DNA of 63,963 bases, filler included, from Craspedostauros australis (taxonomy: Eukaryota): NCBI GenBank assembly GCA_030167865.1. It is 16 parts of 16 records of this genome, joined end to end, with 100 filler letters (N's around TTAATTAATTAA, not from the genome) between each part and the next. Parts side by side here need not be neighbours in the genome. Positions count along the whole stretch, not along the records: positions 36,249 to 41,424 come from JALAGF010004643.1; positions 41,525 to 51,341 come from JALAGF010004644.1; 14 more parts are not named here. The stretch is one strand, 5' to 3'. Position 1 is the stretch's first letter. Each line of letters begins with the position of its first letter. Made by a program: the position numbers and the translations under genes. The notes under the pieces are model-generated. The model did no database searches, was not told where the DNA came from, and saw nothing but the letters and a program-made list of their open reading frames with translations. Of this stretch, positions 3,149 to 51,441 are shown piece by piece.

Positions 3149-3645
3149 GCTAACATAGACAGAGTTAGAAAGTACTTTAATGAAACTACTCTCAATAAGT
3201 AGAGCGCATAGCATAGTAGATTGTTGGTATTGGCACCATGGCGGCGGATCGACAGTGTGCGAACAACATCGCCCCCTCCTTGCCGAACACAAACGTCACT
3301 TTTGATGCCACGATGATGGTCTCCATTGGTCGCATGCACCAAGACCATGATTGTTTGCCATGGTCGCATGGCGTGCGAGCCACGTAGAGATACAACCTGC
3401 TCCACTCGACTCTGCTCGCACATACGCTTCAGGTCGCACACATGTGCGAGCAATGCCGTTGTGAAATAGTGGCCAGCGTACCCACACGGAACAGCAACAC
3501 CAACGATGGAAAAAGAGCCGTTGCCATAGGATGATTGAGCACATAATCCAGAGCTCAAACCATGCTTGCATGTCTGAGGTCAACACGACGCGACGCAACG
3601 ACTCTACTTCTGGCCCTCTCCGGAAGGTGAAGAAAAGCAAACGCG

Positions 3646-12945: not shown

Positions 12946-12989
12946 NNNNNNNNNNNNNNNNNNNNNNNNNNNNNNNNNNNNNNNNNNNN

Positions 12990-13001
12990 TTAATTAATTA
13001 A
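12990..13001. other. Artificial contig-joining linker TTAATTAATTAA (six-frame stop) flanked by 44 N on each side; 15 such linkers in the window
   Basis: Identical linkers at 12990, 17813, 19818, 21522, 24650, 26947, 28556, 32229, 34814, 36193, 41469, 51386, 57011, 60736 and 62250. Confidence 0.97.
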
Positions 13002-17768: not shown

Positions 17769-17868
17769 NNNNNNNNNNNNNNNNNNNNNNNNNNNNNNNN
17801 NNNNNNNNNNNNTTAATTAATTAANNNNNNNNNNNNNNNNNNNNNNNNNNNNNNNNNNNNNNNNNNNN

Positions 17869-19623: not shown

Positions 19624-19873
19624 TCCGTGGTAGTGCAGTAGGTTGGTGAGTTTGATTGCAAGAGTGTGTCTTAGTCTTTAGAGCTGTATGAATCCAAATG
19701 AGACTTTCAATTGGATTGTGAGCATGTGATGTGCAGCATCCATTATAGTTGGATCTGCAACATCTCTATTAGTNNNNNNNNNNNNNNNNNNNNNNNNNNN
19801 NNNNNNNNNNNNNNNNNTTAATTAATTAANNNNNNNNNNNNNNNNNNNNNNNNNNNNNNNNNNNNNNNNNNNN

Positions 19874-20316: not shown

Positions 20317-21477
20317 ATGAGCGAGGAAGAGGAATTGAGAGACATCCCTCTGTCCAATCCGACTATCAAGAGAGAAGAAGGTGCGAGTGAGACTCCACCA
20401 CGACAAGAGAAGGAAGCAGCCGCGGCTACTGTCCTATCAGGCGCAGACGCAAGTGCGATCGACGAGACCGAAGAAGAACGGTCTGCAAGACTACACCGTA
20501 AGGAGAAGAGGATTCTCAGGGCGGTCAAGCAAGAGGAGACTGGTGTGACGAAGAGCATTCGCACAGCCAAACAGGGTGGGAAAAGTGAGACACCATCAGG
20601 AGGAGAATTTGTGAGCAAATCAATCCTCGTGAAACAACAAGCGAAAGCCGAAGAATCGGTAACACAGAAACCGACGGAAATCAAGGGCGCGAGCGCACTA
20701 ACAACGAAACAACGAATCAACATGGCGACATCAGCCAACGTGAACAAGCGACGCATCAAGGCGCCGATGTTCAGCGGTGAACAGGAAGACTACAGCGCAT
20801 GGGAGTCCCAAGCGAAGGCATACGCTCGTACACAGAAGACGAAAGATGTGATGTTGAGCAAGACCAAGGTGCCAACAGTGAGCGAGATCGCGGCAGCCGC
20901 CGATGAAGATAAGGAAGCGATGGAGGAGATCTACGAACTGGGATGCGACTGCTTCAGCGACCTGATCCTCATGATGGATGCAGAGAAAGGAAAAGGTAAG
21001 CAGGCCATCCAATACATCAACCAATGCATCTCCGACGACTACCCTGAAGGAGACGCACACGCAGCGTGGAATGTTCTCGCGAAGAAGTTCCGACCATCCG
21101 ATGCGGTGACGAAGATCAAACTCAAGCGCCAATTCAACAACGAAAAGATGAAGAGAGACACAGACCCCGACATCTACATCACGCGACTCGAAGGTTTACG
21201 ATCGCGTCTCCACGATGTCAAGTACGAGATCACGGACGAGGAGATGATCATGCAGATCCTCAGCACGGTGAGCGTGGAATACAAAACCCACGTCGTGAAC
21301 TTCCATCACCAACTCACGTTCAATCCGGAACTGGTCACCATCAACACGATCAGAGGAGTACTTCGCACAGCATACGCCACTCATCAAGGAGGCAAGGCGT
21401 ACATCGACGACTTCCAAGACAGCAACACGAAGAGCAACGACACTGGCTTCACAAGCACCGGTAACTTCAAGGGTACT
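20317..21477 (+). mobile_element. Ty1/copia gag (Retrotran_gag_2/UBN2-like), 3'-truncated
   Basis: PMFSGEQEDYSAWESQAKAY...GDAHAAWNVLAKKF...LKRQF...DPDIYITRLEGLRSRL...EMIMQIL...EYKTHV. Follows an LTR end. Confidence 0.85.
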
Positions 21478-27002: not shown

Positions 27003-28333
27003 ATCTTGTGATACCAGCTTCTGTTGGTGTCAACAATTGGTGTAGGAGGAGTGGGGGGCTGTGTGTGCAGGGTTTGGTTGCTGCCTATACATGTGGAGCA
27101 GCTCAAAGTTGCAGACCGACTTGAGGGAGAGCAGCCGCTGGCCGTTGCACTCATGAGAGATTCATATCGGCTCTGGATGAGATCGTCTTCGCTGTCACTG
27201 ATATTCTCATCTTCCGAGTCAGTGGCATTGGTTGTATCAGAAGCAACGGCATTCCTCACAGCTGAGAAGTGAATGTGGTTCCACACAACTTCATATCGTG
27301 CTCGTGTCATGTACTTTGTGAGCAGGTGGGATGGTACACCAATGGACGGGGCGCGCCAATAATCCCGCTTGGCTGGTGCCTTGAAGACTCCCATGTAGTA
27401 GTAGATTGCAAGGAAGAGGTAGATCTCCTTCACTGAAANNAAGCTGGCCGTGGATCCACTGTTGAAGATATGGTTGTTGGTGTGGACTTGCATGGACTTG
27501 ATGAGTTGCCGTGAGAAGTAAACCTCCAGGATGGTATCAACTGATGGGTTGAAACATCCAACTGACCGGAAGAGTGGCTTGTGCGAACTGATGGGGAGTG
27601 GTGCATAGGCAACATTGCTGTTGGCTCCATGCACAGGAATGGCTGTGCCATCCACAGCAGTTGCTCCATCAGGAGCCATGGCAACACCAGTCGAAGTGGT
27701 GCGGTCTGCATCCATTGCTCCATTGTTGCTGGCCGTGCCATCATTGCTGGCCATTGCTCCATTGTTGCTGGCCGTGCCATCATTGCTGCTGGCTGTGCCA
27801 TCATTGCTGGCTGTGCCATTGTTGCTGGCCGTGCCATCATTGCTGGCCATGCCATCGTTGCTGTTGTTGGTTGCAATCGGGCCACTCCTCTTGTTTTTTC
27901 TTCCGCACCTCAATGCAAGTTTGCGTTTGAGGCACTCGATAATGCGACTGCTGCGCCTGTTGCTTTCGAGTATGCTTGCAGTGCTGCTGACAGTGGTGGT
28001 ACCAGCCACACTGATGCAGGCACTGTTGCCATTGCATACTCCCTTGCTGCTTGCGGTTGGTGCTCCTGCGGAACGGTCTCCNGTCACTCCATTGGTAGCA
28101 TGAAGGGATTTTTTCCGATTGCTGTTGAGGAATACCACGAAGGGTTTGGCGCAATTGTAGCTTGCCGTGCCATTGGAAGAAGGCTTGGATACTTTGGCAC
28201 GCTTGGATGTGGGAGAAGCCGGAGATGATGTAGGCATGGCCGCGGGTGCATGAGATTGGCTGTGCTTGTGTTGTGATGGGCGATCGATGATGTGGAATGG
28301 TTGGAATTGCGATTGCAATTTTGTGATCACCAA
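27003..28333 (-). mobile_element. piggyBac-like transposase, N-terminal fragment
   Basis: EIYLFLAIYYYMGVFKAPAKRDYW...MTRARYEVVWNHIHF...RSWYHK, homologous to 32441-34769. Contains 18-bp repeats encoding ASN(D/N)GT at about 27713-27860. Confidence 0.8.
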
Positions 28334-31300
28334 TCGCGATGATCTCTTCGACGGTGCAAAGAAACAATCAAAGAGATTGCGTGCAACGAAGAATGATCCA
28401 TGAGCGATGAGCCACAGAGATCATCAGCGAAGCAATGTGTTGGCAGGTATTCATGGAGCTGTATGAACACGCATGCCAAGTGATGCATGTGAAAACGGCG
28501 ATCGAGTTGAGNNNNNNNNNNNNNNNNNNNNNNNNNNNNNNNNNNNNNNNNNNNNTTAATTAATTAANNNNNNNNNNNNNNNNNNNNNNNNNNNNNNNNN
28601 NNNNNNNNNNNGACTGAGGAGGTTCATGGCACCTCCAAGACTGATCTTGCTTCTTGGAACAACAATGATGCATGCAGCAAATCCGATCATTGCAGCAATG
28701 CGATCTTGCCAAATTTGATGGGATTGATGAGCTTGTATCTGAGCCAAGATGCTCAGGTACATTCACTCACCAAGACAGTAGACATGTATGTTCATGTGCA
28801 CATAAGGAGGATGACAAGCAGGGCCTGACATCCATCCTTCAACTCATTACCATCTTCAGATACCAAGACAGGTATCTGAGCGCCGTTGGGAGTTGCGGGA
28901 AATGAGGTCAACAGAGAAAGAGAAAACGGTTCATGACCAAAAAGTCTCATGCGTGACCTGAAACAGTCTACGGAGAACAAGACTAGACATAGACTAAGGT
29001 GAATATAGACTTTTGATCTGATAGACCAGCCACATGAACTTGTTCGTGTTGCGCGAGACAAATTAATGGTGCTGAAAGCAGACAGGCCAGATCTTGCTTC
29101 AATTTATTTCGAGTCACTTGGTGTGTCGATGGATGATCCTCATCTGGATGAGCATATCGCTGTTGGCAGTGGGTCCGAAAAGGGCAAGGACAGGATGGAC
29201 CCTCGCCAGACAAGACTGATCTGTCTGAGTTGGGTGGTGGAAACCGCTTGGCTGTTGCTCGGTAAAATCGTCTACTGTGACATTGCTGTTGTTGTTGTCG
29301 GCGTCGAGGTCGACGTTGTTGGTTTCGTTGGTGCTTGTGGGGAAGAGCAAACGCAGCTTTGGAGGGTCCGTACCCGTAGGAGGACAAAGAGAGACGCAAA
29401 ACCACTCCTCGGGCATTTATGTACCAACAAAAACATGGACACGACCACACTATTCGCGCGAAGACCTCAGCATGTCTCAGGCATTAACAGGGATACAAAG
29501 TGGTTGACACATCTTTGAAAGAAGTAACGTCACCCAGCTCCCAGGATTTGGTTTTGTCGGCATTTGGAGGAAATGATGTCATGTTGGCGCTTGTCATAGA
29601 ACGGCAATGGCAGCGTTGAAGGAATTGCCTCGCAAAACAGCATCGGTCACTGACAATAACAAGCGAAGACATACTTCGATTATCTGCCTTCCGTTGTCAT
29701 GGCCCTTGCTTATTGCTCAAAGTGGCATCCTAAACTGCTGAAAGCACTGATAGTTGCGAAAGTCGCATGAAAGAGAATGGTGACGTTCGAACCAAGCAGT
29801 GTATTAAGTGATGTGATTGCGAGTCAAAAATGACGCAGTGGCTTTGGCGGCGGTAGCTAAAGATCCAAATCGAGCACAAAAGACAAACCGCGCTTGATGA
29901 CCGGACCACACCATACTTTGTAGTACGATCCACTCTCACAGCAGAGCCCATGGCAGTGGCGCATGTAAGGCTATTAATGATCATTGACTAGTGGAAGGGG
30001 TGAGATCCACCCTGGATGAACCTGTGATGGCATACATACTACAAAGCGTATCCGAGTAGAACAGACCTGCGGTAGGACAATATCGCACCTTGCTCTTCTT
30101 GCTGCACTGGACAAAGCCCAGGATCGATGTAGAGTATGCGGTCGCCGTCCCTCTCTCTCTCTCTCTCTGGTATCCTTTCGGCTGATGGCATCGAGTGGAC
30201 CTTGCTCTTCAATTGGTCCCTAACAACCAATGCTCTGACGATTGTGTTCCTCCTGAGCACCCGACTTTTGGGCCGCGCATTGCGCCAACGATGTATCTTG
30301 GCGATTAAAGAGGGGCAGGAGTCTCCCTCTACCGCGTCGCAGCCATACAAGTTTCTTCATTGAAGGCGCGACCCGAAGCATCGTGTGCGGAGCACTCTCT
30401 TGTTTCTTCGAATGCTACGCGAGGAAACTGTCACACAATGTCGTCTTGTCATGGGAGTCCAACAGTCGTCGCTGTTGGGATAATGCCAGCCACTGAGGGA
30501 GGGTGCTTTGCGGTATGGTACAAAGCAATATGTATATAATCGTTCTAATGTTACACGTTATACAATGCAACATAATAGCTTGTATCAAGTGCTCCGAAAG
30601 CCCTCGAGACGAAGACTTACCTTATCTCCGTGCTGTGCCAAGCGATTCCTTGCGGCGTACCTCAATATCAGCACAAGCGCAAGCAGTGACAATGCATCCA
30701 ACGGCTGAAATGGACGCTGGATTCGCTGAGATTGCTGACTTTTGTTAGTTGGCTCGGTGAGTTTCGAATCAGTAGTCTTACCACAAGTGCTGACGCAAGT
30801 GTCGCCACAAGCGTTGCCGAAAAGCAAACGAACTCACGAGCCACAAGCCCCAAGTCTTGGTCAGCAGCGAACGCTGGTTTGCGATAGGCGCATTTTGACT
30901 CGAAATGCCCAAAGGAGAACCTCGTTGAGGTCACAGCTGCTTGACAAATCGATTTACGAGAATTTTGACCGACATGCGAAGAGAAGCACCATTCACATTC
31001 TTGCCCCAAAATCGGGCAAGAACAACCAAAAGCAATGCTGCACCAGAACGCAATGACTTCGCTTCAATTCTGCACAAACGACGGACATGTACTAAGTATA
31101 GTACGAGCAACAGATTGCAGAGACTCGACGATGGCCGAAACAGCAACGGCAGCAACTCGAAACGATGACAGCAACAACAAAGGCAATGGTAATGACAACA
31201 AGGATCATCGTCATCACACACCGCAATTTCTTGTGAGCTGATTGCCTTTGTTGATCCAAATAAATGGAAAAGGTTATCGTGAAAAAACTCCTCGAATACC

Positions 31301-32284: not shown

Positions 32285-32428
32285 ATCACACCATCACGGC
32301 ATCACATCATTGCAACATCACAGTGTCACAGAATTGCAGCATCACATCATCACGGCATCACAGCACCGCGGCATCCCAACATTGCAGCATCGCGGCAGTG
32401 CAACATCACAGCATCAGATCACATCAGT
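32285..32428. repeat. Degenerate 8-bp-period repeat (GCATCACA-like) ending just before the piggyBac ATG
   Basis: CATCACGG CATCACAT CATTGCAA CATCACAG ... CATCGCGG ... CATCACAG. Confidence 0.75.
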
Positions 32429-32440
32429 CCAAGTTGCATC

Positions 32441-34769
32441 ATGGTTGATCCCCCAAAGAAGCCATCACGAAAGCGTGCACCCCCCACAGGCACATTGCCA
32501 TCCTTGCCTGCACACAAGCCCCTTGCATATGACGGGTCACCCTACAGCAGCTCACGGCCACATATCATATTCCTGAATGGTGTGCCTTCCTCTGCCATCT
32601 TCTTTGGAGACAACAACAGCACATCTAATTCCGAGCGAAGTCCAACCTACAGAGACTTCCTCGGAAACAATGAATCCTGCAACACCACCAACATCTGGGG
32701 CAATCCTAATCTGCCTGGTTTGGATACCACTGCCTCCTCATTGGACATTGATGCCAACCATCAGCCCTGCCATGATGATGCCACAAATAGCAGCACAGTC
32801 AGCCCCATCCCTTCGCCAACACAAAAATCCTACACCAACAGCAGTACTACACCAGAGTTCTCCACAGACAGCACCACCACGCGAGGAAGCTTGGAGGGTC
32901 GTGCATGCTTCACTGGTGATGAAAGCAACCAGAGAACCATTCCGCAACTGAACTTCCCTCCATTCCCAACACCAACAGATGGGCAATCCAGGCGCAATAC
33001 CGTCGTCTGCTCCAAAGAATCCACCAAGCCACCCTGGGATTCCCGCCATGCAGCCTCCCCAGGGGACAACATCGCCAGTCCTCCGGTACCTCTTCTTCAT
33101 CCCATGGCTCCTCCTCCATACACACTCCTACCCATTGGAAATCACAAGCCAAGATTTGCTGGCATTCGGAATTTGAAGACAACAGTGGAAAGCCTTCTCG
33201 AGATCATTTTTCCACATACCTTGATGGAAAGAATCCAATGGCATTCAAACAATCATCTGCGGAAGAGCGGCAGCATGGCCCCTGCCATCACAATTTCCGA
33301 GCTGTACATATTCGTGGCAATGTACTACTACATGGGAGTATGGAACGCACCGTCAAAAAGGGACTATTGGCGTGGCACCTGTGTATCCGTCCCTACTAAC
33401 ACACTCATGACCCACCTGAGCAGGAATCGATATGACATCATCTTCCAGCACATCCATTTCACTGCAGAGCTTCCAGATGATGACAACGGATCATCAGCAT
33501 CTTCCACCACACCCATCAACTTCGATGTCAATGAAGATGATATGCGGAAGAGTGCAGACAGTACCACCATTGCATCACGAAGTGAGCTATCATCCATCAG
33601 CACAGTTTCATTGAAGGTGAGCAGTGCAGAGTCCAAGGATACCAGAGCCTCCAATACAAAGCCGCCAGCACAAAAGAAGGCCAAGAAGGAGGGCAGCAGT
33701 GTTCAGTTGAGCCGATCATGGTACAGGAAGGTGCAGCCACTCCTCAACCATACCAATCGAGTGGCAAAACGCATCTGTACAAGACCAGGCTCCGCATGTG
33801 CCATCAACGAAATGATGGTGCGGTTCAAAGGTTGTTCCGCACAGACACACAGGATGAAGATGAAGCCAATCAAAGAGGGCTTCAAATTCTTTGCACTTTG
33901 TTGTTCAAGCACTGGGTTCATGTACCATATCCTACCAGCAGGTCGACTTGACAAGACCACAAGAATCAACAACACTGTGGAGGAGTTGATGAATGAACTT
34001 GATCGAAGGCATCATCATGTGGTCACCATGGACAACTTCTTCACCACCAAGATGGTTCTCCAGCGGTCAAGACAGATGGGCATTGGCATCTTGGGCACAG
34101 CACGCAATCGGAACAGATTTCCTCCAAAGGCAGTTAAGGAGGTCAAGGATGACAGGTTCAACAGCCTGTACATCTGGACTGAACCAAATGAGCATGTGGT
34201 GACTCGGTGGGTGGACAACAACATTGTCCTGATGGTGAGCACGGTTCACTATGGACACGAGACAGTTCTTCGTGATTGTCACAAGCCCAGAGAGACACGG
34301 ATCAACAAGAAACATCTGAAGACGGTATGGGGAGATGATTGGAATGCAAGAATCCGCATTCCCAAAATGATCAATGACTACAATCACTGGATGGGTGGGG
34401 TTGACCGATGTGATCAGCTGATCTCATATTATCGTCCAAACATACGCTGCAGGAGGATATGGATGCCACTCATGTTCCATTTCCTGGATATCCTCAGAGT
34501 GAACGCATGGATCAGTCATTGTCATCTGGCAGACAAAGAGGAGAGGTTGCCCCAAAAAGAATTCACGCTGGAGATGGTGGAAGCCCTTGTGAGGAAGTCG
34601 TCCACATGGAGTTCAAAGGGCACAAGATCATCAGAACAGATACCCAGACTGATTGTGACAAGGCACAGAATGAGGGCATCTGCGCCAACCCTCCCAGAAG
34701 CGAGATTGATGGGAGAGGAGGCAGAGCATGAGCAAGTAATTGTGAAAGGAGAATGGGCAAGAACGTGCC
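32441..34769 (+). mobile_element. piggyBac-like DDD transposase, probably inactive (first catalytic Asp reads Asn), 3'-truncated
   Basis: ELYIFVAMYYYMG, RDYW, LSRNRY, AI(N)EMMVRFKG, KPIKEGFK, VTMDNFFT, LGTARNR, WVDNNIV, YNHWMGGVDRCDQ. Confidence 0.9.
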
Positions 34770-37019: not shown

Positions 37020-40000
37020 TTTGCTTGTTTGTTTGTTTGCTTGTTTGTTTGTTGTTGTGTTGATACTCTGGTTGTTGCTGTGATTGAGCGTTGCAGAGAT
37101 TGCAAGATTGTGAGATTGTGAGATGAATGAGGAGTGAAGAGTGGAAGTCGATTTGAGTTGACGATCTTTGTTGGTGTTTGGGTGTTGTTTGTGTGGCGTT
37201 TGCGTTGTGGTAGTCCGTTATTGACACCGTCGATACCGTTGACACTGGTCCTCCAATCCTCGTTTCGTTTTGCCGATCACTTGTCCACTCTCGCACGAGT
37301 GTTGTTGTTGGAGTTGTCACCACGCAATTCCTTTCATGGATCTTGTTGAAGTCGAGCGTTGTTGTCATTGTTCTGTGTTGTGTTGGTTGTCATTTGATGT
37401 GTTGGTGCTGATGTCGGGTGTTGAGTTGCTGTTGCGGACAACAGCGTTTCGTGGCAAAATGTGAAGGGAATCGACTTTGGCGACAGCGTGCCCGTCTTTC
37501 CAAGAATAGCCGGCGCGTCGGAACAACCACTCTTTCACGATTGTTCGCTAGTCCCTTTTCGTAGAAACATGGTAGGGCCCACGTGGCGCATCTGCATTAT
37601 TCGCGAAAGGTCGTTCAGCTTTGTGGACGTGCACGCGTGTTTTGTGGGACAAGGGTGCACGCTTATCGCCCGTTGTGGAAGAAGCCGCAGTTTCATTGTC
37701 ATTGCCAAAGATCCAAACTGCAACTAGATGGATCTGCGGTAAATGTATATCAACTGTTTTAACGAAGATGTTGAGGCAGAAAATAGACACAAATCGGCTG
37801 AGAGAGCAGAGTACGCTGCTCCAGTATAGGGATGATGGCAGATGGATCATGAGCACTCGGTGGGGTTAGAATCCGCAATGGTATTTGTCCTGCATAACAG
37901 GCAAATGGATAGTGAGGGAGCGAGGAAGGGTGTGCATGGATTTACACACGGCATCATTCTCTTTTTCTTTCTCATGCCTGGCCACTGCGGAGCTTTGACA
38001 GAGACAAGCGCGGCACCTGTTTGTGTGTAACCTCTCCATCAACGCATAGATAGATTCAGAAGGACCTGTTGTCTGAACCGATTCAGAACGGGCATGGCAC
38101 AGTATTGCGTGGTATGGTGTGGCGTGGGTTGTGAGAAGAACGATTAAACTCGTGCTTTGACTGTTTGACAACTCAATTGTATGAACAGACGACTGGCCGT
38201 ATTCTGCGAACAACCAAACAAGACAGAAACTAACAGACAGACATCCAAACATGATTCAAACCCAAAGAGCATCTTTCACAAGAACAGAAGATCAACCAAG
38301 ATGCCTCCGCAACACTCGCAATGGATGCATGGCGTCATGAAGCGCTCGCTGTCCAATACGCCAGAGACATGGAGTTGTGGCGAGCGTACTCCATGGTGGT
38401 CTCACATCACAACGGAAGTTGCCAGACTGTTGGTACATCCAAGATGTTAGAGTACAAGTGCGAGTGCGAGCACATCATGACAAGCAAGGGAAGAGCTGCG
38501 CTCGTGTCGCACATAGATGGGCAACCGATTGGAAAAGCACACCACTTTGCTGTGATGTTCATAAAGTTCCATTTACAAGCAGGCAGGGCGCACTCGGATC
38601 ACTTTCATGCAAGTATAATATCTGCTTGTTTGTGGAATGATCTACTCCCACTGACACATATCATACATATCATGCATGTAATTTGCACGGTGCCTACTCG
38701 AACCAAGCGATCCCTCCATTTCCATTCGATCAGTGATTGCGCGATCCAACTCGGGTTGTCAGCTGAGCATCCGTGCGCCACGGATCTTTCTCTTTCTGTG
38801 TTTGCTGTTTGTCTTCCATTACTTGGAGCCGCCACAACAGATACCTGGGCGAGGTTACCCATTCGCATCCGTGGAACCCATGTCCCAGATGGCTGTGACT
38901 CGCGGTTGCTCAGATGTTTGCTCCAATCCTCCAACTTTCTCCTCCCTGTTTGTGGCGTCCTCGCGGTTTCGCATAGCAATGAATGGTGCGTCGCGTGGAC
39001 ACGTGCTCTGTTGCGAATTCGACAAGAGGGCGCGGCATCGCCGATAATTCCGTCTGTCCGTCCATCACGACACGTTGTTTCGCGGGAAAGAACGCACAAC
39101 TTTGCTCGATTTGGGCACAGATGTTTGCAAACGACTCAATCGACCACCATTTACCTCGGCACAGATGTGCGTTCCATTTCTTGTGCACGGACGTTCGCGA
39201 ATGATTGATGAAGTCTGTTCATGTCGCAGTGACCCACGTCGACGCGTTGGCTTCGGGGGAAGATGTTCGTGCTTCGTATGAGAGAGTCGTCGAATAGGGG
39301 CGTTCTGGGCCTTTAAATGCCAAACGGGTGCTGTGACCCATCGTTCAATCATCAACGAGCTAAGAGCCACACGCAACCCATGAGTATTTAGAGTAGTGTG
39401 AACGATGTCGATTTACGTATCAAGAGGAACGCAAGTGACGAACTGCCAGCAGGCGCGGCTTCTTCTTGGGTAGAACTGCAATGTGGGTGTTGCTGACGCT
39501 CCTGGTGCATGTTCATCACAGAATCCATGTCATGTGGTCCCAACGCTGCTGGTACCGCTGCAGGTGTGGCTCCTACTCGTACTGCCGTGGAGTGTGGAGT
39601 AGGCGCACTTCCAAGCAGCGACCTCGATTCGTTGGTCCGAGAAACGCAGAAACCGCTGTGATGGTGGCGACCAACGCTCATCAATCACACACGGCAAGCA
39701 GACAGCAACCGCGAAATCAAATCGTTGCTCTCCGCAGCGCTCGCGCAGCGTAGCCTCGGTTTCTCGTCTCAGCATTCACCGCAGTCATCGCAGTCACCGA
39801 TGTACTCTATTCCATTGTACCGTCATAATACACTCTCCATACATACCAATGCTCGTACAAACTCTACGAGCACTCTGCGTACGATCAGCAGCCCACCAGA
39901 CAGACAGACCAATCAGGCAGCCAATTGATCGGTCTCATAAAAATCGTATCGATCAGCTCTCAACACAAACACAGCTCATCAAACCAACCCAAAGCACTCC

Positions 40001-40064
40001 ACAACAAAGCAATCCACAACAAAGCAATCCACAGCAAGACAGACAAGACAGAACCACACGCAAC

Positions 40065-41375
40065 ATGAGCGCCTTCCTCCATAACCTCGATCTGAACAAG
40101 ATCAAGACCATCCAGCGCAGCAACCAGCACAAGATTCCATATCTCCCATTCCCAATCAAGCTCCACCAGCTCCTCACCGACGTCGAAGAACAAGGTTTCG
40201 AGGACATCATTTCTTGGATGCCTGACAACGAGAACGCATTCCGCGTCCATGATCGAAAGCGGTTTGTGGAACTCGTCATGCCAAGGTACTTCCGCCAGAC
40301 GCACATGCGGTCCTTCACCAGACAGCTGAGGAACTACGGTTTCGTGAGGATGACGCGTGGCAGGGGCAAGAACAGCGCATACCACCATGAGCAATTCTGC
40401 CGCAACGACTTCGAGTCCGCAAAGCGCGTCGGCAACCTCAACTCTCGCCACAATGCCGCCGTCGCATCCGCTGATACATCGCCATCCTCGGCGAAGGCTG
40501 CATCGGCGGTGTCGAAGAATGTCCAGAAACTCAAGAAGATGCCCAAGTTCGCACCTATTAGACAGTCAGCGTGTCCCTTGACGACGCTCAGCGAGAAGAC
40601 GTACAGCGACATGATCGCATCAGCGGTGCTCTCCAACGCGAAGGTCGGCAACAGGAGCGTTCAAGCCGACGACGCTCTTCCATCTTCCGTTGTCCCCATC
40701 AACTCAATCGTTCAGATCTTCAGCAAGCGGGTGAGCGATGCCTCATCTTCCAGCGTATCCGTTCTTCCTCCTCCAAGCCAGCAGATCGCATCCGATCCAG
40801 AGAACGACGATGCCAGCCAAGCTTGTTCCATGCAAGACTGCACGTCAATGAAAGCGCCGCTGGATGTTGATGGCCTGTCAACGTTAGATGCAACCCACAT
40901 CGCGCGCAAACAGTCCGCGGTGGCATGTGGCCCTGTGAGACCATCTTGTTACAACAGCGCCACCACGCAAAGAGACGACTTTGAAGGCCAGGGTTACTTC
41001 CCAATCCCATGCGCCACCACGGGCAGCAGCATCGACACATTGTTGAGCCGCCATGAGAGTTTGGCGTTGCCTAATATCTTCCCGTTGGCTGGTACCGAAC
41101 AGGATATCGAGGCCGGAAAAGAAGAGCGTCGACCAAGCTTGGTGTCACTAGAAGGGTGGGATGAAGTTATTGATACTGTGAAGGAGCCCGCCTGGGATGG
41201 TGATACCAACGGTAATTCCAATGGCGATGGTGACGATGACATGGATATCCAGAAAGGACCATTCTTGCTGGATGATGCCTTGCCGGTGCCAGTAAGCACT
41301 TGCTCGTACAGCGACACTCAGGCTGTGCCGATGCACCAGCTTAGCTCGGTACCTTCCTGCATCGTGGAGTTGTAG
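40065..41375 (+). CDS. HSF: Heat shock transcription factor (HSF DNA-binding domain) protein
   Basis: PFPIKLHQLL...IISWMPD...FRVHDRKRFVELVMPRYFRQTHMRSFTRQLRNYGF...YHHEQF. ATG at 40065 follows an AC-rich leader. Low-complexity, acidic C-terminus. Confidence 0.92.
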   Translation: MSAFLHNLDLNKIKTIQRSNQHKIPYLPFPIKLHQLLTDVEEQGFEDIISWMPDNENAFRVHDRKRFVELVMPRYFRQTHMRSFTRQLRNYGFVRMTRGRGKNSAYHHEQFCRNDFESAKRVGNLNSRHNAAVASADTSPSSAKAASAVSKNVQKLKKMPKFAPIRQSACPLTTLSEKTYSDMIASAVLSNAKVGNRSVQADDALPSSVVPINSIVQIFSKRVSDASSSSVSVLPPPSQQIASDPENDDASQACSMQDCTSMKAPLDVDGLSTLDATHIARKQSAVACGPVRPSCYNSATTQRDDFEGQGYFPIPCATTGSSIDTLLSRHESLALPNIFPLAGTEQDIEAGKEERRPSLVSLEGWDEVIDTVKEPAWDGDTNGNSNGDGDDDMDIQKGPFLLDDALPVPVSTCSYSDTQAVPMHQLSSVPSCIVEL

Positions 41376-42551
41376 AATGCTCTTGGACCAATATGTATTT
41401 TGTTATACATTATTAATAGTACTCNNNNNNNNNNNNNNNNNNNNNNNNNNNNNNNNNNNNNNNNNNNNTTAATTAATTAANNNNNNNNNNNNNNNNNNNN
41501 NNNNNNNNNNNNNNNNNNNNNNNNATCAACAGGCGAAGCGATATCGTGCCGCCTCCACTGTTTCTGCCTCACAGACCACCAACATATCATACCATGCGCA
41601 TTCTATCCTGAGGCATGAGCGCCATCGTCTTGGCTCGCGACTTGCAGAGCATCGATGCTCAACCGAGGTGATTGACAGGAACATCCGCCTCATCAACGAA
41701 GTTGCGAGTACCACAAAGGAGGACATGTGGGTATACGGTGCTCATGGGCCATGGATCGCTGACCATGTGCTTCTTCTACCATACGGAAACTCTGTGTCAA
41801 CCATGATCCGCAATACTGCGCTCGCACTCTGCATGGGGTTGCTGGTTGGTTCGTTGGTTGATTCGTTGGTTTCTTCTGTTGCTCGTCAAGCTCTCTGGAT
41901 GGTTGGACTGGGCTGGCTCGTCGGTTCCTGTCTTTCCGCCACACTGGCACTGATCGCTTCGAAGATTGGAATGGATGGTGGCCCTGGCATTTGTTGCTCC
42001 AACAGTGAATGATCGCTCCTCCTGGGACTTGGTGAGGGTCTCGACTGCAGCTTTGGGCGAAATGGCGGAAGTGCAACTCCAGGAAAGATGAGAACGATAG
42101 CGTGATACGGGACGGTCGATAGAACCGCGCAGCAACCATGCTCCTCGTGGCTTCTCATCATTTCCCTCTGCCTTGTTCGCCATGTGCTCTTCGTAGATTG
42201 CCTCTTCCAGAATCTTGGATCGGCTGGCACCGGCACTGTCGCTTTGGATCTGCTTGGCAGTGTGACTTGGAGTAGAATGCTCTGTGTGCGAATCCGGCGG
42301 CACGGTGACGACCGCACGGCTTGTGAAAATGGTGCTGCCATGTGTCCATTGTCTGTGCAACGAACCAACAACGATGCTCATGGCGGGGCATGGATGGAAC
42401 CACGGACGTCCAACCTGCTCGTGAATGACATCGGCAACATCCCTGTGTGTGTATGTACTGTAGAGATAGTTTCGGAATTCCGACAAACCAAACCAAAAGA
42501 AAATAAAAACTAATTAATACCCTAACGCACAGCAAACAACAGCAAAGCAAA

Positions 42552-45161
42552 ATGAGTTCGAATCAGGGAACCAACACGAGCCAACGCGAAGAGCAGAGCC
42601 ATGACAAAGGCCCAACTTTGCAGCAACCCACCAAGGAACCCGACAAACCCACGCCCACCATGAACATCGACACAAGCAACCAACATCGAGCCAGACGACA
42701 AGCGAAAAGAGCCATCCCATACGATGGAGGAATGGAGGAAGACCCGGACGACGTATCAATCACCTTCAAACCGAGATCAAGCACGTTCAAAACCGCAGCC
42801 AACAAGACCGGCATCGACATCACGCCATACAACAAGGCAACAGGAGAAGGCTCCATTGACAGAGCAGCAAAGACAGCATGGAGAGCTCGAGCTATATGGT
42901 ACAACAGAGATGAGGCCACCGCAGACAGGGAGAATCCCACCATCAAACAGTGGGAACACTTTTTCCGCGATCTTGCCGATGGCAGAGTAACCTCCTTTGG
43001 ACCAATCACACTCCCAAACAAAGACCCCACCGGGCTCAAGCTTCTACAGTTCGTCATCAACGTTGCGTCAACCAACCCACAAGAAGTGTTCAAAGCACAC
43101 CTAAACAGCAATGGGACGGTGAAAAGCGCCAGAGCAGTCAAGGTGTGGAAGGCAGCCAATAGAGTATTGGGGTCCAACTACGATCTCGGAATAGCGCCCG
43201 ACAACACAACACCCACGAATGAAGACGCCATGGAGGGCCTCACGCTACAACCGGACTGGCCAACGCAGAATGACACGGCAGACCAACCAACGGGAAGCAG
43301 AGTAGCAGCGATGCCAGCAAATGCAACAACAGAATCACTCAGCACCGACAGCGACTCCTACACCAGCAGACAGCCCAACAAACGCACCAGGTTTAAGTCA
43401 CCACGACACACAACCAACGCCTCCGAAATCAGCCAAAACAGCTACGGGAGCTCTCAATCAGTGGGATCAGGAAGAAGCAGCGACTCATCAACCGACTCTG
43501 GCATTACCAGAAACAGCTCCGCCAAGCGCGCCCACACACGAAGCAAGCGAAGCGCAGACGACAACTCAGTGAGTTCGGATGAAGAATCGAACACGTCCCA
43601 AACGAAGATTGCCCCGCCCAGACACGAGCATACGACCAGGTTCACGATCAAACTCAATGTGGATAGAACCGAAGAGGATACCACAGCAGCAGTGAGGGAA
43701 AGAATCAAAAGGTGGTTCCGACAAGTAAGACGCATCGACTCATCGGCGACAATCCTTCCATGGAGAGAAAGCAGCAACACCGGGCCACACATCGCACACT
43801 CCGGCCAGATACCAGAACGCATGGAAGACCTCCGAACATTCTTCCCAGGCCTCAGAGCCCCATCAGGCGCTACTGGCATCACGTATGCAAAAGTACGCAT
43901 CACAACCAGGGACGACCCGTTCGATATCACCGCAGACAGGAACTCCGAACTCAACGCGTACTACTACAACGAGCATGAGGGACTGTACCTGGCACAATTG
44001 CAAGAGGCAGAGGAGGTCAAAGAAATAGGCTTCCTGCTCTACTCCGGAGGGTTCACGGACGTCAACGGCACAGTCGAAGTCATCAATCGAAGTCTACGAC
44101 GAAACCGCAGCAACATTCGGGTGGGAGGGAAAATCAAGAACATCATCCAGGTCAGCGAAGAGACCAAGGAGAAGTACAAGAACGGGAAACGACATTGGAC
44201 GGTGCAGCCGTGGAAAGCAATCAAACTGGAAGTGGAGAGGTCGCAGGCCTATGAAGCCGTTGCAGAAGTAGCAACCCTATTCAACACCAAAGAGGAGCGA
44301 CCGGGAGCAATGAACTTCAGATTCCTCCCAGACAAAAAGTACGAGCAGATGTCCAGAAAGAAGGAAGCATTCCGAGAAGACCTCCTCGCGAAACACCAGG
44401 CAATCCTCTCAGTGATCGAGTACTCTGACTCTGACGGGGTAGCACACCTGGACAAGAAAGTCAAAGCACGAGATGGCCACTCCATCACTCTGCGCAAGCT
44501 CATCCTCCGCGAAACCAACAAGGAAGGCGAACGCATATTCCACAGTGTAGACAGAGCCCGAGGCACCGACGATCAAATAGTCGCTCACTCCTTCCCGGAA
44601 TACCTCTCGGATGCGAAGTACTTCATGAGTCTCCTCCCGGCGGTTGCCAGGCACAAGGTCGGCGACAGGGCAGAGAAGTGGTTCAGCCCGGAAGTCTGGC
44701 TGGCAAGCCTGGGCATAGAGTTCGACCCGATCACCAACGACTACACATCCCCAGACATACACGGTCTAGGTGACATCGCCGACGAATCCTTCCCAGCAAG
44801 TGTGGTCATAACAAACATCCCTGACATGATGCCCGTCCACCATCGCCCGGCAGCACTCGACAACCGAAGCCTGTTCAATCCCAATTCGACAGTCGGCACC
44901 AACCGGTCCATGGACTCAGCTTACACCGTAGCCCCAAGGCTGGCCTCAACGGAAGACACCGATCACACTGCGGAGCAACCAACTCAAACCAACCAAGAAA
45001 CACACAACCGGGAAGGCATCCTGCGCACTGGATCAGCAACCAGGTATAACCAACCGCAAACCAGGGAGGCCCAACTCCTAGCACAGGTTCAAGCACTCCG
45101 AAGTCAGCTAAGCAAACCCGACGGCGACCCTCCGCAGCCTAATGGAGACCCGCAACCATGA
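42552..45161 (+). CDS. ORF1 protein of the non-LTR retrotransposon (869 aa)
   Basis: Intact ORF 85 nt inside the left TSD. Its TGA overlaps the ORF2 ATG (ATGA at 45158-45161). Ser-rich linker followed by a globular region (IGFLLYSG). Confidence 0.85.
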   Translation: MSSNQGTNTSQREEQSHDKGPTLQQPTKEPDKPTPTMNIDTSNQHRARRQAKRAIPYDGGMEEDPDDVSITFKPRSSTFKTAANKTGIDITPYNKATGEGSIDRAAKTAWRARAIWYNRDEATADRENPTIKQWEHFFRDLADGRVTSFGPITLPNKDPTGLKLLQFVINVASTNPQEVFKAHLNSNGTVKSARAVKVWKAANRVLGSNYDLGIAPDNTTPTNEDAMEGLTLQPDWPTQNDTADQPTGSRVAAMPANATTESLSTDSDSYTSRQPNKRTRFKSPRHTTNASEISQNSYGSSQSVGSGRSSDSSTDSGITRNSSAKRAHTRSKRSADDNSVSSDEESNTSQTKIAPPRHEHTTRFTIKLNVDRTEEDTTAAVRERIKRWFRQVRRIDSSATILPWRESSNTGPHIAHSGQIPERMEDLRTFFPGLRAPSGATGITYAKVRITTRDDPFDITADRNSELNAYYYNEHEGLYLAQLQEAEEVKEIGFLLYSGGFTDVNGTVEVINRSLRRNRSNIRVGGKIKNIIQVSEETKEKYKNGKRHWTVQPWKAIKLEVERSQAYEAVAEVATLFNTKEERPGAMNFRFLPDKKYEQMSRKKEAFREDLLAKHQAILSVIEYSDSDGVAHLDKKVKARDGHSITLRKLILRETNKEGERIFHSVDRARGTDDQIVAHSFPEYLSDAKYFMSLLPAVARHKVGDRAEKWFSPEVWLASLGIEFDPITNDYTSPDIHGLGDIADESFPASVVITNIPDMMPVHHRPAALDNRSLFNPNSTVGTNRSMDSAYTVAPRLASTEDTDHTAEQPTQTNQETHNREGILRTGSATRYNQPQTREAQLLAQVQALRSQLSKPDGDPPQPNGDPQP

Positions 45162-48100
45162 TAGTCAGCCACAGACGGGCACAGTCCAGCCCGAACCACA
45201 ACGGACCCGCCAACACCAGGAACTCGAGATCGGATGAATCGAATCCACAACAACTACACATCGGCCAACACACCAGCAACAAACCGACCAATCACATCAG
45301 AATAGCAGCCCTGAACATAGGCAGCTTACCACCCGACGCCACAGGACCCAAAAACGATGATCTATGGCAATCCATACGACAGCATCAAATCGACATCCTC
45401 CTCATCACGGAGATGGGACTCAACTGGAACCAAGTGCCAGCAGATGCATCGCTCGTCCACAGAGCGGAAAACATCTACGCATGGCTAAAGCCAGCACGTC
45501 CCACAACAAGACAGCCACCACCAACCCGCGACAATGGGGGGGGCACCGCCATTCTCGTCCACGGCAACACAGCAGGCCGAGTGCTATCGCGCGACAACGA
45601 CCCCGAACAGTGTGGCAGGTGGGCAAGTATGCTGCTCCAAGGCAAACAAGGCATCAAAGTGCGAGTAGCGACAGTCTACGTCCCCACCAAGTCCACACAA
45701 ACACCAGGCACCGTGTACAATCAACAAGCAGTCAAGGCTGCCCAACGAGGGTCCAACCTCGACCCAATCGACCTCCTCATCCAAGATCTGCAAGCACAGA
45801 TCGCCCAATGGAAACAAGCGGGCGAAACCATCATTGTCGGAGGCGACATGAATATGGATATACGAAGGTCGAAGATCACGACGATGCTCAGCTCGGAAGG
45901 ACTTCGAGAACACCACTCCACCAATATCTCACAACCATATGCAACCATGATCCGGAACCAACGGAGGACGCCGATAGACGGAATATGGGCCACAGGAGAC
46001 ATCCAGCCATCGCAGCTCGGACTGACGGCGTACGACAACTGGGACCACCGAACCGTATGGATGGACATTGACTCCGCCAGCCTCCTCGGTCCCAACAAAC
46101 AACCCACCACGCCTTTCCGGGGGCGCAGACTCCATCTCGGCCAGCCCGCGACAGTACGCAGATACACGGAATCATATGCAGCACAAGCAGAACAACTTCA
46201 GCTTCTGCAGCGAGCGACAACACTCCGAGCTGACATCGGCACAGGCCCAATCACCAAGAATCAGACCCAGCTGCTGGAAGCAATCGACAAGGACCGCACG
46301 CAAGCGATCCTCCACGCAGAACTCAAATGCCGGAGAGTCCGAGCGGGAGCAGTCCCCTTTTCACCAGCCTTGGCCAAACTCCACTGGGAGCACCAATTCT
46401 GGAGTCTCAGTATCAAGCGCCGCAAAGGCCACAACACCAAGGGACGAACAGTGGACAAGGCCAAGAAAAAAGCAGGCCTGCAAGTCCGCACCATCCACAT
46501 GACGACGGCCCATATGCACAAGCGCAAAAATGATGCATGGAGGTCGTATCAACGAGAGAAACAAAACGCAGCGAACCATCGACGGACGTTCCTCGCTGAC
46601 GACGAAGCAGAGGTCAACAACAAAGGCCAAGACCCAACCAAGTACCGCGCACAGCTTCTGCAGAGGGAAGAAACCCGAGCCGCATACCGACGCATCAAAC
46701 GATCTCTACAAGCTAGCGGGGACGACGCTCAGATATCCATCGTCATCGACGACGGACCCGGAGGACAAGGCAACCTACTCACCTCCGGAGAAGACGTTGC
46801 CAGAGCCTGCTGCAAGAACAATGTGGACAAATACAGTCAAGCATGGCGAGCTGAAGTGTGCCAACGGCCTCTGAAACGCAGCCTCGGAAGATTCGGGACC
46901 AACCCGGCGGCTACCGCCATCCTACATGGTGTCATCCCATCGCAAATCAAAGCCAGCACGCACGAAGTACTTCGAGCACTACAGCAGCCCACGGCAACCA
47001 CCCCATGGCCCCGCGAGCACCTCGTCATCGACCACGAGGATCATTCACGCGGATGGGTACGCATCAAGGAGAACACGTCATCCGGACCGTCCGGGATACA
47101 CTTTGGCTGCTGGAAAGCAAATGCCAAAGTGCCAGAGCTGGCTCTCATCGACGCCATCCTGCGGGAGATACCCTACAACACCGGGTACAGCCTCCGAAGA
47201 TGGCAGCAGTGTATCGACATACAGCTGCGGAAGAAGCCGGGGAACCTGGCTGTCACCAAGACAAGGACGATTGGCCTCATGGAAGGCGACTTCAACATGA
47301 ACAATCGCCTCCTTGGCAAGCAAGCCAGGTCCCACGCAGAAGCCCAACATACCATCGCCGCCGAACAATACGGCAGCCGGAAAGCCCACACCGCCCAAGA
47401 GGTCTTACTGAACACCACCCTCATCGACGACATCGGGAGGACAACAGGACTCCATTACGCTGTGTGCTCCAACGATGCCAAAGGATGCTACGACAGGATC
47501 GCCCATTCCGTCTTCAGCCTGGCCCTGCGGCGACAAGGAGTCCCGGCAGCACCAATCGAGAGCACCCTGCGCACTCTCCAATCGATGACGCACAGGATCC
47601 GCACATCCGCTGGCACATCTGCCGCATCATACTCCGGAACACAACGCCATCACTACCTGCAGGGTCTGGTTCAAGGGCTGGGATCCGCACCGACAGGTTG
47701 GTTAATGATAAGCTCTGCTATCATCGACAGCATGCGCAGCCACGGGTATGGGCTCAGTCTTCCAAACCCCATCACCAACGAAAGCCACGTCATCACCGGC
47801 ACGGCTTACGTCGACGATACAAACGTGATGCAAAGCCTTCCCGCACAAACCCCCAACGCGCAAGCTCGGCTCTTTCAGGACGTGGTGGACCGTTGGGACA
47901 ATCTGCTGACAGCTACGGGCGGGGCATTGGAACCAACCAAAAGCTTCTGGCAACTGATCCGATTCAAATGGCAGAAGACAAGATGGGTCTACAACCTATC
48001 AGCCCCCAACATCGGGGTCTTCATGAACTCTCCCGACGGCCAACGCATTCGCCTCACCATATCCAGTCCAAGAACCGCCGGCAAATACCTGGGCATGGTA

Positions 48101-50764
48101 TCATGCAGGGACGGCAAACAAACCGACCACGCCGACTACCTACTTCAGAAGTCCAAAGGGTGGGCAGAACGGATCCGGACATCCCGCATCAGCCGGCAGG
48201 ACACGGAGGTGGCCCTCAAGTCAGTGCTCTGGCCATCGTTGTCATACTCCACACCAGCCACCACGATGTCACAGCGCCAATGGCACACAGTGATGAGCGC
48301 GGCGCTATCGGCTGCCCTTCCAACCATGGGCATCGCCCGGACCATCGCCAGGGAATATGCATTTGGACACTCCGATGACATGGGCATGGGCATCCCTCAC
48401 CTACACACGATGCAAACCATCGAACACCTGGCGATGGTCATGCGCCACTTTGAGCAAGATACGGAAACCGGGCGCCTGCTGCGCACCTCGCTCCGACACC
48501 TCGAGCTGTGGACAGGCCTGCCAGGCCAGCTGCAACAACAAGAACACATCTGGAAGAGCTGGACAGCCACATCGTGGTGGCAGAACACATTTCAGTCAGC
48601 AACGCAGCTCGGCATCTCCATGACCGACCAGTCTCACAGTGTCAACGCTCCACGTCAAGGCGATGTGACGATCATGCATCTCGCGATACAAGCCGGCATC
48701 CACAAGGCCACCCTTGGACTCGCCAACGTCGCCAGGCTGTATCTCCGAGCAATTTGGCTGTCTGACATCGTCACAGCATGCGGGAAACAGATCCGGTCAT
48801 GCGTCCTCCAGCGAGCTCGGCTACCCGCCGGGTCCATCACATGGCCCAAGGTTGGAACAGTCACTAAAAAGGCGTGGGAAGCATGGGAGCAGGTACTGGC
48901 AACCTTCGCGGCCACCGACCGACCAGGGTGGCACATCAAGGTCCAGCTGGGAGCCTGGCACCGAGCGCCGGCCCAACGCGCGGCTCAATTACCAAACGGG
49001 ACAGTGCTACTGCCAGGCCAGCATGGAGTCTCCACACGTCCAGGAGGGCCGCCCACATCCGTCGTCGATCGCACCGTCCGAAGGGCTGGGCTGACGACCA
49101 CGTCCTCCGGTCCCATCCTTGCCAAACCTCCGCCTACCACAATCCGAGACTGGCTGCAACTCAAAGGGCCAGCGGCCAGAGCAATGCTACCAGTGGTCCA
49201 CATCAATGGAGACATCCACCAAATAGTCCAGTCGATCGTGGAAGGCAGATGTGCGGCGTGCAGTGACGCATCCGCCAAGCACAACCACGGCTCCGCGGCC
49301 ACCATCATACAGAGCGACGTGGGAGACGACACTCATCAGCTCATCGCCACCGCCGAAGTCCCCGAAGGGTCCCACCCGACCGACTCCAACAGGGCGGAGC
49401 TGGCAGGAGTGCTCATGTCCATATGGGTCGTGACCGCAATCGCAGAGTGGGCAGGAGTGACCGGAACGGCCACAGTCGCTTGCGACAACAACCGGGCCTT
49501 GCAATCAGTCGATCCAGCCCGATGGCCCGATCCCAAACGACCGGACCACGACCTGTGGACCGAGATTGTCCGGCGCCTCCGCAACTCTGCCGTTCACTTC
49601 AGGCCACAAGAAGTGCAAGGCCACGCCGACTCATCTGGCCGGCAGCTCACGGAGTGGGAGGCCATGAACGTGTCCGCCGACGCCCACGCAGGCTATCAGT
49701 GGGAGCAATCGCAACAGAGCGGGTGGAGCGCGACCATACCGCCCATTCCAACCGGAGGATGGGTACTGCACGCGGGCGCTACTTCCATCACAGATCTTGA
49801 CTACTGGACCGTCCACAAAGCGCTCGACGACGCAGGTATTCGGCGCAAATGGTGCCAACGCTGGGGGACAGCCAACCCCGAGGACGTGGATTGAACACCA
49901 ATGCGCGCCTGCTCCCGTCGATGGCGAGGAGGCAAGCGACGCACGCTGCTCAAACTGATGACGGGCACAAGCGCCAGCGGTAAGAATATGCAGCGACGGC
50001 AACAAGACACCTCGGACGCATGCCCCCGCTGCGGCCAGCCAGAAGACAACTCCCACATTATTATGTGTCAAAGCGCCTCCAGCCAGGCGATCTGGGCCAA
50101 AACAATCTCCAAGATACGGTCTATCGTGCGACCACCCACCACGCCTCCAGCCGTCGTGCAACTACTATGCACAGCCCTAGTACGGATATCCACCGGAGGC
50201 ATCCCGCCGTCTGGAATCAGAGACTCGCCCACCAAACGCATCCAACTCCAGCAAGCCGCGGTGGGATGGCCAGCCATCATGTGGGGCGGATGGGCAAGCC
50301 CTTGGCGAGACCAGGCACCTCCCATGCCCCAGCACAAACGCCGACGGGCCCCCAAGCAACTCTGAGACTGGCAGACCAGCGTCACCAACATCCTCTGGCA
50401 CGCGGCACTCGAACACTGGCGTGACCGGAACGAGACTAAGGCCGCTCAGACAGCTGAGAACATGATCACCCTCCTACAGCAGCAAGCGAACCTGATCCAG
50501 GCCATGCCGGCCGTGGACGTCCCGTTGGTCCTACATCCTCTCTGGCGGCAGCCTCCCCCCCCCCACCACCAGGCGATCGCCACATCAGAATGGGTACAAG
50601 CCATGCGGCAAGGTCTGGGCGGCGCATGCCCGCACGCCTCCAAAGTGCTCGTGAACTGGATGCGACGACTCCGGCGGCCCGCACACAACCCACCCAACCC
50701 CCACGACGGCCAACCACCGAATGACCGCAACCACAACTCCATGCAATCGGCCCCTGTCCTATAA
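45158..50764 (+). pseudogene. ORF2: AP endonuclease + reverse transcriptase + RNase H + CCHC knuckle; two in-frame TGA (49892, 50363)
   Basis: APE: ALNIG, ILLITEMG, VGGDMN, PIDGIW, WDHR. RT: QYGSRK, SNDAKGCYDRI, QGLGSAP, AYVDDT, KYLG. RNase H: CSDAS, RAELAG, ACDN, VQGHAD, NVSAD. After the first stop the same frame continues into CPRCGQPEDNSHIIMC and later HWRDRN, ending at 50764. Confidence 0.88.
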
Positions 50765-50993
50765 CCTCAACAACACTTTCCTCCGTTCCCGCAACGTGCC
50801 CACACGTTGAATAAACGAGGCGGAATAAAAGCGCCACCGGCGCATGACTTAACAGTTATAATCCATGTGTTATATATATATGTATGTACTGTAGAGAGCA
50901 CACCAGAGTAGTCGTAGACAAGGAGGAGGTAGCGTGGGAGCAGTATCCAGCCCTTCAATCTCTTCAAACATCTGGTGCCTTTATCACAGCGTT

Positions 50994-51341
50994 CTATTGG
51001 ACACGCAGATATAGTACTGTGCCCTCATCCTCATCTACAACCTTGTACAGGTCCATCATGAACATACAACTGTACTCATCATCGATACCATCACTCTTGG
51101 CTCCCCCACTGCAAAACATCTGGATCTCCGTCATCAGTTGGGGTTGTAGAATCAGCTTGCTTAAATCTAGATGAGTGAACATATCTTTCTCATTTTCAGC
51201 TGCCACTCTCATTGCTGCATCCTTCAACACCACACAGTTGTGTTGATCAGCGAATAGCAACGCATCTATCGTGGTGTCCTCTGTGAGATGCTTGTGGGCC
51301 AACTCTGCTTCAAGAACAAGCTTGAGTAGCCAGAAGCCGAA
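50994..51341 (-). CDS. C-terminal part of a BTB/POZ (SPOP/BACK-like) protein, 5'-truncated, possibly degenerate
   Basis: FGFWLLKLVLEAELAHKHLTEDTTIDALLFADQHNCVVLKDAAM resembles the BTB-BACK junction of MATH-BTB proteins. Confidence 0.6.
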   Translation of the reverse strand, partial: FGFWLLKLVLEAELAHKHLTEDTTIDALLFADQHNCVVLKDAAMRVAAENEKDMFTHLDLSKLILQPQLMTEIQMFCSGGAKSDGIDDEYSCMFMMDLYKVVDEDEGTVLYLRVQ

Positions 51342-51441
51342 NNNNNNNNNNNNNNNNNNNNNNNNNNNNNNNNNNNNNNNNNNNNTTAATTAATTAANNN
51401 NNNNNNNNNNNNNNNNNNNNNNNNNNNNNNNNNNNNNNNNN

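Follow-up and report, generated by a model that had tools for sequence, protein, structure and literature searches.

Long interspersed nuclear elements (LINEs) of the I group, such as the Drosophila I factor, possess two open reading frames (ORFs), the second of which encodes an APE endonuclease, a reverse transcriptase (RT) and an RNase H in that order. They end in a short simple repeat and insert by target-primed reverse transcription, leaving a target-site duplication (TSD) of variable length. The well-known RNase H-bearing LINE clades are I, Ingi/Vingi, Tad1, Loa, R1, Nimb and Outcast, and characterised members of CRE use a restriction-like endonuclease, not APE. Ambal is listed in one table as a clade of retrotransposons without long terminal repeats (non-LTR) that is restricted to 'protists' (PMC4438587), and its name stands in the classification tables of PMC4455052, PMC5753468 and PMC4438587. 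A diatom genome paper records abundant 'LINE/Ambal' (PMC12803021), and the label 'CRE-Ambal' in a dinoflagellate paper groups it with CRE (PMC11572971). In the portions of the literature covered by our searches, Ambal is named only in lists and labels, and no description of its domains or termini was found there. Here we analyse a stretch of 63,963 nucleotides (filler included; hereafter the window) from Craspedostauros australis (GCA_030167865.1), in which positions 42450-50897 hold an element that we read as one full-length copy of an APE-type non-LTR (LINE) retrotransposon. We place the probability of this reading at about 0.85, because the element is bracketed by an exact and unique TSD, its APE and RT domains score above the Pfam cut-offs, and its RNase H is recognisable from residues and predicted structure. 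All element features given below lie on the plus strand.

The termini are defined by a 17-mer, TGTATGTACTGTAGAGA, found exactly at 42450-42466 (5' copy) and 50881-50897 (3' copy), and a search allowing up to two mismatches still returned just these two matches in the window. None of 100 dinucleotide-preserving shuffles of the window gave two matches, and since different bases flank the two copies, the length of the repeat is fixed at 17 bp. This direct repeat is a genuine TSD, in agreement with a preliminary description of the locus that had called it perfect. The element body between the two copies spans 8,414 bp (42467-50880) and starts with TAGTTTCGG. It opens with a 5' untranslated region (UTR) of 85 nt (42467-42551) and closes with a (TA)5 tail and no poly(A) (50871-50880). 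As is characteristic of LINEs, the duplication stands at both ends, long terminal repeats are absent (blastn of the element against the window returned the self match alone), and the 3' end is a simple repeat, the alternative to poly(A) in this class. The preliminary description had also reported the 85-nt leader, an ORF1 of 869 aa, an ATGA overlap between the ORFs and the (TA)5 tail, all of which hold, as does each figure that it gave. A perfect 12-bp palindrome, TCGGAATTCCGA, occupies 42472-42483, six bases inside the 5' end. The 5' UTR folds weakly (-6.6 kcal/mol, z -2.2; 6 of 200 shuffles equally good), and the sense strand of the element is rich in A and C, with 28.9% A and 14.0% T.

ORF2 (45158-50764, with its stop codon at 50762-50764) has a conceptual length of 1,868 aa and can be aligned over its whole length with 51 relatives of 1,800-1,960 aa, which together with the window sequence make up the 52-sequence alignment used below. 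As expected for an APE-type LINE, an APE-like endonuclease lies N-terminal to the RT within this one ORF. The endonuclease (aa 52-283; 45311-46006) matches Pfam Exo_endo_phos with an E-value of 6.3e-11 and 42.9 bits against a cut-off of 24.5, and residues N53, E85, D230, N232, D274, D296 and H297 are invariant or near-invariant in the alignment. The RT (aa 692-931; 47231-47950) matches RVT_1 in a scan limited to that region (E 2.6e-9; 37.5 bits, cut-off 29.6) and carries YVDD at aa 884-887, a motif conserved as F/Y-V-D-D among the aligned relatives. The RNase H region (about aa 1365-1520; 49250-49717) gave no Pfam match even at E<=5. Within it, D1370, E1414, D1465, H1489 and D1508 are invariant and D1443 is near-invariant, and an AlphaFold2 model of aa 1321-1578 reached a mean pLDDT of 87.6 and a pTM of 0.84. 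A Foldseek search with this model returned 182 matches at E<=1e-3, and the best Protein Data Bank (PDB) matches are RNase HI enzymes, including that of E. coli (E 2.9e-6, probability 1.00). The top target-normalised TM-scores, 0.74-0.76, belong to the Sulfolobus tokodaii enzyme and the N-terminal domain of Rv2228c. Given the invariant D-E-D-H-D set and a confident model that matches RNase HI, we consider the predicted RNase H domain to be real despite the Pfam miss. Searches of PDB sequences with ORF2 and with the family profile returned no RT or RNase H, and the profile found no solved LINE protein at E<=1. Toward the C terminus, a CCHC motif, CPRCGQPEDNSHIIMC (aa 1622-1637; 50021-50068), follows the first of two in-frame stops; C1622, C1625 and H1633 are invariant, C1637 is at least 90% conserved, and the region matches zf-RVT weakly (E 0.0057, under the Pfam cut-off). 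The order APE-RT-RNase H-CCHC given in the preliminary description thus stands, with Pfam for APE and RT, residues and structure for RNase H, and conservation for the C-terminal CCHC.

At E<=1e-3, 97 relatives match the RT region; the best is 45% identical, and every one is unnamed or 'hypothetical'. Most are 1,850-1,950 aa long and lie on contigs of roughly 8-9 kb, in line with a full length of 8.4 kb. A quick tree of the 52 aligned RTs groups the window sequence with the relative P0002 (support 0.999) and then with P0003 (0.988), and Atlas neighbours carry RVT_1, RNase_H and Exo_endo_phos. Five further loci (L001-L005), which hold full or partial LINE relatives and whose ORF2 is 26-29% identical to that of the window, were found in a bacterial and archaeal genome collection, in records labelled as metagenome-assembled genomes. 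These records are filed under Chitinophagales, Alphaproteobacteria, Nitrospirae and Acidimicrobiales. L001 also carries a fragment of a leucine-rich repeat gene at 2-598, on the basis of which the five loci are most simply regarded as eukaryotic contigs mis-binned into bacterial genomes. At L004, the tail of a minus-strand copy (14371-14385) abuts a degenerate, related plus-strand copy (10001-14322) in what looks like a nested insertion. Judged by sequence relatedness, the clade of the element is large, diverse and mostly unannotated, and is seen in marine metagenomes and transcriptomes; its members are common in marine sequence data and sometimes binned wrongly into bacterial genomes. Standard domain libraries annotate the lineage poorly, Pfam missing both the RNase H and the whole of ORF1.

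ORF1 (42552-45161, 869 aa) begins with an N-terminal region of some 350 aa rich in S, T and N and continues into a conserved folded core at about aa 355-735 (43614-44756), delimited by a full HMMER search. It contains no cysteine and therefore no CCHC zinc knuckles of the kind found in I/Jockey-type ORF1 proteins. Nor does it resemble the L1 clade, which combines an ORF1 of RRM plus CTD (Pfam Transposase_22) with poly(A), whereas here ORF1 has no Pfam family and the tail is (TA)5. ORF1 had no Pfam match, no Atlas neighbour and no hit in a word-indexed search; an exhaustive HMMER search returned 161 relatives at E<=1e-3, of which 62 reach E<=1e-10 and 6 reach E<=1e-30. The AlphaFold2 model of the core is very confident (pLDDT 91.6, pTM 0.85), and it found no match at E<=1e-3 in either the PDB or a viral structure library, while the ORF1 family profile found nothing among PDB sequences at E<=10. 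The weak top structural matches include proteins with multiple RNA recognition motifs and ferredoxin-like proteins (Prp24, Cas6, ACT domains), which hints, as a lead only, that the modelled core may be composed of tandem beta-alpha-beta units. The ORF1 family also lies upstream of ORF2 in L001, L004 and L005. In L001 the homologue is split over two ORFs in different frames (730-3510 and 3522-5006), and hhalign with the family profile gave probabilities of 54% for the end of the first and 94% for the start of the second.

ORF1 stops and ORF2 starts within the same four bases, ATGA, at 45158-45161. LINEs of the SART1 type show translational coupling at overlapping stop and start codons, and a similar overlap is present in all three elements with a clear junction, namely the window copy (ATGA), L001 (ATGA) and L005 (TAATG); the junction of L002 is unclear. 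ORF2 would probably be translated by termination-reinitiation at the ATGA, a coupling suggested here by the layout of the codons.

In LINEs of the stringent type, such as eel UnaL2, the RT recognises a 3' stem-loop together with a short repeat tail. The 3' UTR of the present element (50765-50870) is predicted to form two strong hairpins, with stems CAACGUG/CACGUUG and GCGCC/GGCGC. The 116-nt region that includes the tail (50765-50880) folds at -31.2 kcal/mol with a z-score of -4.25, and none of 200 shuffles folded equally well. The likeness to UnaL2 thus lies in a structured 3' UTR directly followed by a short tandem-repeat tail. A box, TAATCCATGTGTT, at 50859-50871 adjoins the (TA)5 tail. Simple-repeat tails terminate all three visible 3' ends, which are (TA)5 in the window, (TTTC)4 in L001 and (ATT)5 in the minus-strand copy of L004. 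The 3' ends of L001 and L004 are 75% alike over the last 80 nt or so; that of the window shares with them only short blocks, comprising TAAAGC, a GCC/GGC hairpin and a TAATC(C) box beside the tail. This likeness of the 3' ends is a lead only. A pattern, TAATCCRTGYGTT, was derived post hoc from the window and L001, and its matches do not constitute independent evidence. A covariance model of the three 3' ends, run against the window and the five loci, recovered nothing beyond the sequences it was trained on. Two AATAAA hexamers are also present in the 3' UTR (50810-50815 and 50824-50829), 51-65 nt ahead of the tail, and the second overlaps the TAAAGC block common to the relatives' 3' ends.

From this anatomy we infer insertion by target-primed reverse transcription. 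The endonuclease would cut the bottom strand where the 17-mer begins on the left, and the 3' end released there (...TACATACA-3') would serve as primer for cDNA synthesis from the terminal (UA)n of the RNA, possibly aided by partial pairing. The RT probably recognises its RNA by the structured 3' UTR. A second nick, in the top strand and 17 bp away, would generate the duplication, and the RNase H would remove the RNA template. The preliminary description had placed the insertion at the edge of a (TG)n tract and suggested microsatellite targeting or microhomology-assisted priming. The tract is overstated, since the sequence there is only TGTGTGTG, four TG repeats long, and Tandem Repeats Finder calls no array at this place. 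The first eight target bases, TGTATGTA, match (TA)4 at six of eight positions, which is uncommon in the window, where only 77 of the 52,595 other 8-mers match to this degree in register, a number that rises to 171 if both registers are allowed. On the other side, this is a single site, and the two distant relatives show no such likeness, the flanks beside their tails matching their own tail at 1/8 (L001) and 4/8 (L004). The likeness of target to tail is unusual, yet it concerns one site chosen after the fact and is a weak pointer.

Although structurally full, this copy is interrupted in ORF2. The frame is open only over 45158-49894, or 1,578 codons, and the 1,868 aa of the preliminary description hold as a conceptual frame but not as an open one, two in-frame TGA codons cutting it after 1,578 aa. 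The first (codon 1579; 49892-49894) falls in an I-D-W motif of the relatives, in a column that is W in 44 of 51, and would most simply be a TGG-to-TGA change. The second (codon 1736; 50363-50365) stands in a variable column, occupied by K in 12, L in 10, R in 9 and T in 8 of the 51 relatives. A code in which TGA specifies W was considered and rejected, since the second TGA is at a variable, non-W position and ORF1 itself ends in TGA. The window copy retains all 53 residues that are invariant in the alignment, including those past the stops, and has no frameshift in 8.4 kb. Because these residues are intact beyond the stops, the frame is unshifted and the duplication is perfect, the insertion is probably young and its ORF2 recently disabled. 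Autonomous elements have uninterrupted ORF1 and ORF2, whereas this copy, as judged from its reading frames, is unable to make full-length ORF2 protein. The earlier characterisation as complete and not 5'-truncated accordingly applies to its structure and fails for its coding capacity.

Could the 17-mer belong to the element as a terminal direct repeat, or reflect an assembly artefact, rather than mark the target site? Only one copy of the element is visible, and the assembly is fragmented and artificially concatenated, which leaves some room for this idea. We judge it highly improbable, given that the 17-mer is absent from all five related loci, that L001 has no terminal direct repeat of at least 10 nt, and that the repeat brackets precisely the start of the 5' UTR and the simple-repeat tail, the arrangement that target-primed reverse transcription would leave. 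A separate question is whether the copy is still autonomous, with an ORF2 that naturally ends beyond the RNase H at 1,578 aa or with TGA codons that are bypassed by readthrough or stem from sequencing errors. APE, RT and RNase H all precede the first stop, both stops are TGA and no frameshift interrupts the 8.4 kb, all of which would suit such a view. The post-stop region, however, is carried by 51 of 51 aligned relatives, with C1622, C1625, H1633 and other invariant residues. In addition, the first TGA replaces the W of most relatives, the second occupies a variable, non-W column, and ORF1 is likewise closed by TGA; continued autonomy is hence improbable.

Several observations weigh against the reading as a full-length LINE copy. 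Neither blastn nor tblastn of the element against the window detected a second copy or fragment, and with one copy only, the termini and the duplication are not comparable with those of other copies or with an empty site. In L001, the only relative with both termini visible, no duplication of at least 10 nt is present; a 7/8 match with a TAAAAC core is at chance level by estimate. The scaffold supplies limited context, with 942 bp upstream and 461 bp downstream of the element, duplication copies included (scaffold 41525-51341, 9.8 kb). No convincing gene is recovered when the flanks are joined in silico, and the ORF in the flanks has no Pfam family and no homologue. Conservation of the 3' structure across relatives, at variance with the comparison to UnaL2-type elements, is unsupported. 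RNAalifold on the three 3' ends gave three conserved pairs and no covariation, and in a leave-one-out trial a model built from the L001 and L004 3' ends missed that of the window (0/5 matches at E<=10). Finally, every step of the insertion mechanism is drawn from anatomy and from what is known of other LINEs.

Assignment of this full-length copy to a clade is less settled. In its general features, the element resembles the I group in its two ORFs, APE-RT-RNase H order, simple-repeat 3' end and TSD, and differs from it in ORF1, which is 869 aa long, cysteine-free and of unmatched fold, in contrast to the CCHC gag-like ORF1 of that group. The preliminary description had called the element Ambal-like, and the alternative is that it belongs to a well-known RNase H-bearing clade or to a clade without a name; we regard the two possibilities as evenly balanced. 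For the alternative, two relatives match Pfam Exo_endo_phos_2 ('Endonuclease-reverse transcriptase') at 25.3 and 26.6 bits, under the cut-off of 27.4, and the Atlas neighbours with RVT_1, RNase_H and Exo_endo_phos point the same way. Also for the alternative, 'CRE-Ambal' is the only printed RepeatMasker-style classification label found in the sources covered (PMC11572971), and the placement it implies may suit an element with an APE poorly. The same label casts doubt on the APE-RT-RNase H description of Ambal given in the preliminary description. Against the alternative stand the cysteine-free ORF1, unlike the gag-like protein of I-type elements, and the failure of the family profile to find a solved LINE protein at E<=1. 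In addition, Ambal-labelled LINEs do occur in diatoms, being abundant in one diatom genome (PMC12803021), and Ambal is listed as protist-restricted (PMC4438587). The other contents of the window (an HSF-type gene, Copia and piggyBac-like elements) and the marine origin of the relatives would be in keeping with a host of this sort.

A bolder possibility is a deep, abundant clade of marine-protist LINEs that matches no named clade. Such a clade would be recognised by a conserved ORF1 of about 800 aa that lacks cysteine and has a confidently predicted core without kin among known structures, solved or viral; by simple-repeat tails that vary with the lineage, namely (TA)n, (TTTC)n and (ATT)n, each following a 3' box common to all; and by a preference in priming for sites that look like the tail. 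We consider this combination unlikely, though not far-fetched. The element is otherwise an ordinary, recently disabled mobile element of a little-studied family, in which the ORF1 fold and the likeness of tail to target are the only unusual points. No new mechanism is opened by it, and those two points alone might repay further work. For transposon curators, it offers exact termini, a 17-bp duplication, a tail type and a full ORF layout for a poorly annotated LINE lineage.

The window consists of separate scaffolds chained by fifteen identical artificial linkers of 100 bp, N44-TTAATTAATTAA-N44, situated at 12946-13045, 17769-17868, 41425-41524, 51342-51441 and 11 other positions. The linkers at 41425-41524 and 51342-51441 form the left and right ends of the element's scaffold. 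Since the scaffolds are artificially joined, adjacency across a linker carries no information on the true genomic neighbourhood. The flanks of the element are unique within the window, and joining them as a proxy for the empty site yields a minus-strand ORF of 250 aa, compared with 238 aa from stop to stop when the site is occupied.

Elsewhere in the window, a piggyBac-type transposase domain, DDE_Tnp_1_7, is encoded by ORFs at 32285-34768 (plus strand, E 4.2e-46) and 27005-28420 (minus strand, E 8.1e-10). Pieces of LTR retrotransposons lie on other scaffolds, namely a Copia-type gag (Retrotran_gag_2) at 20317-21477 on the plus strand and a Pol beta-barrel domain at 17869-19677 on the minus strand. 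The scaffold placed just before that of the element holds an ORF of 590 aa with an HSF-type DNA-binding domain (39603-41372, plus strand, E 1.2e-17).

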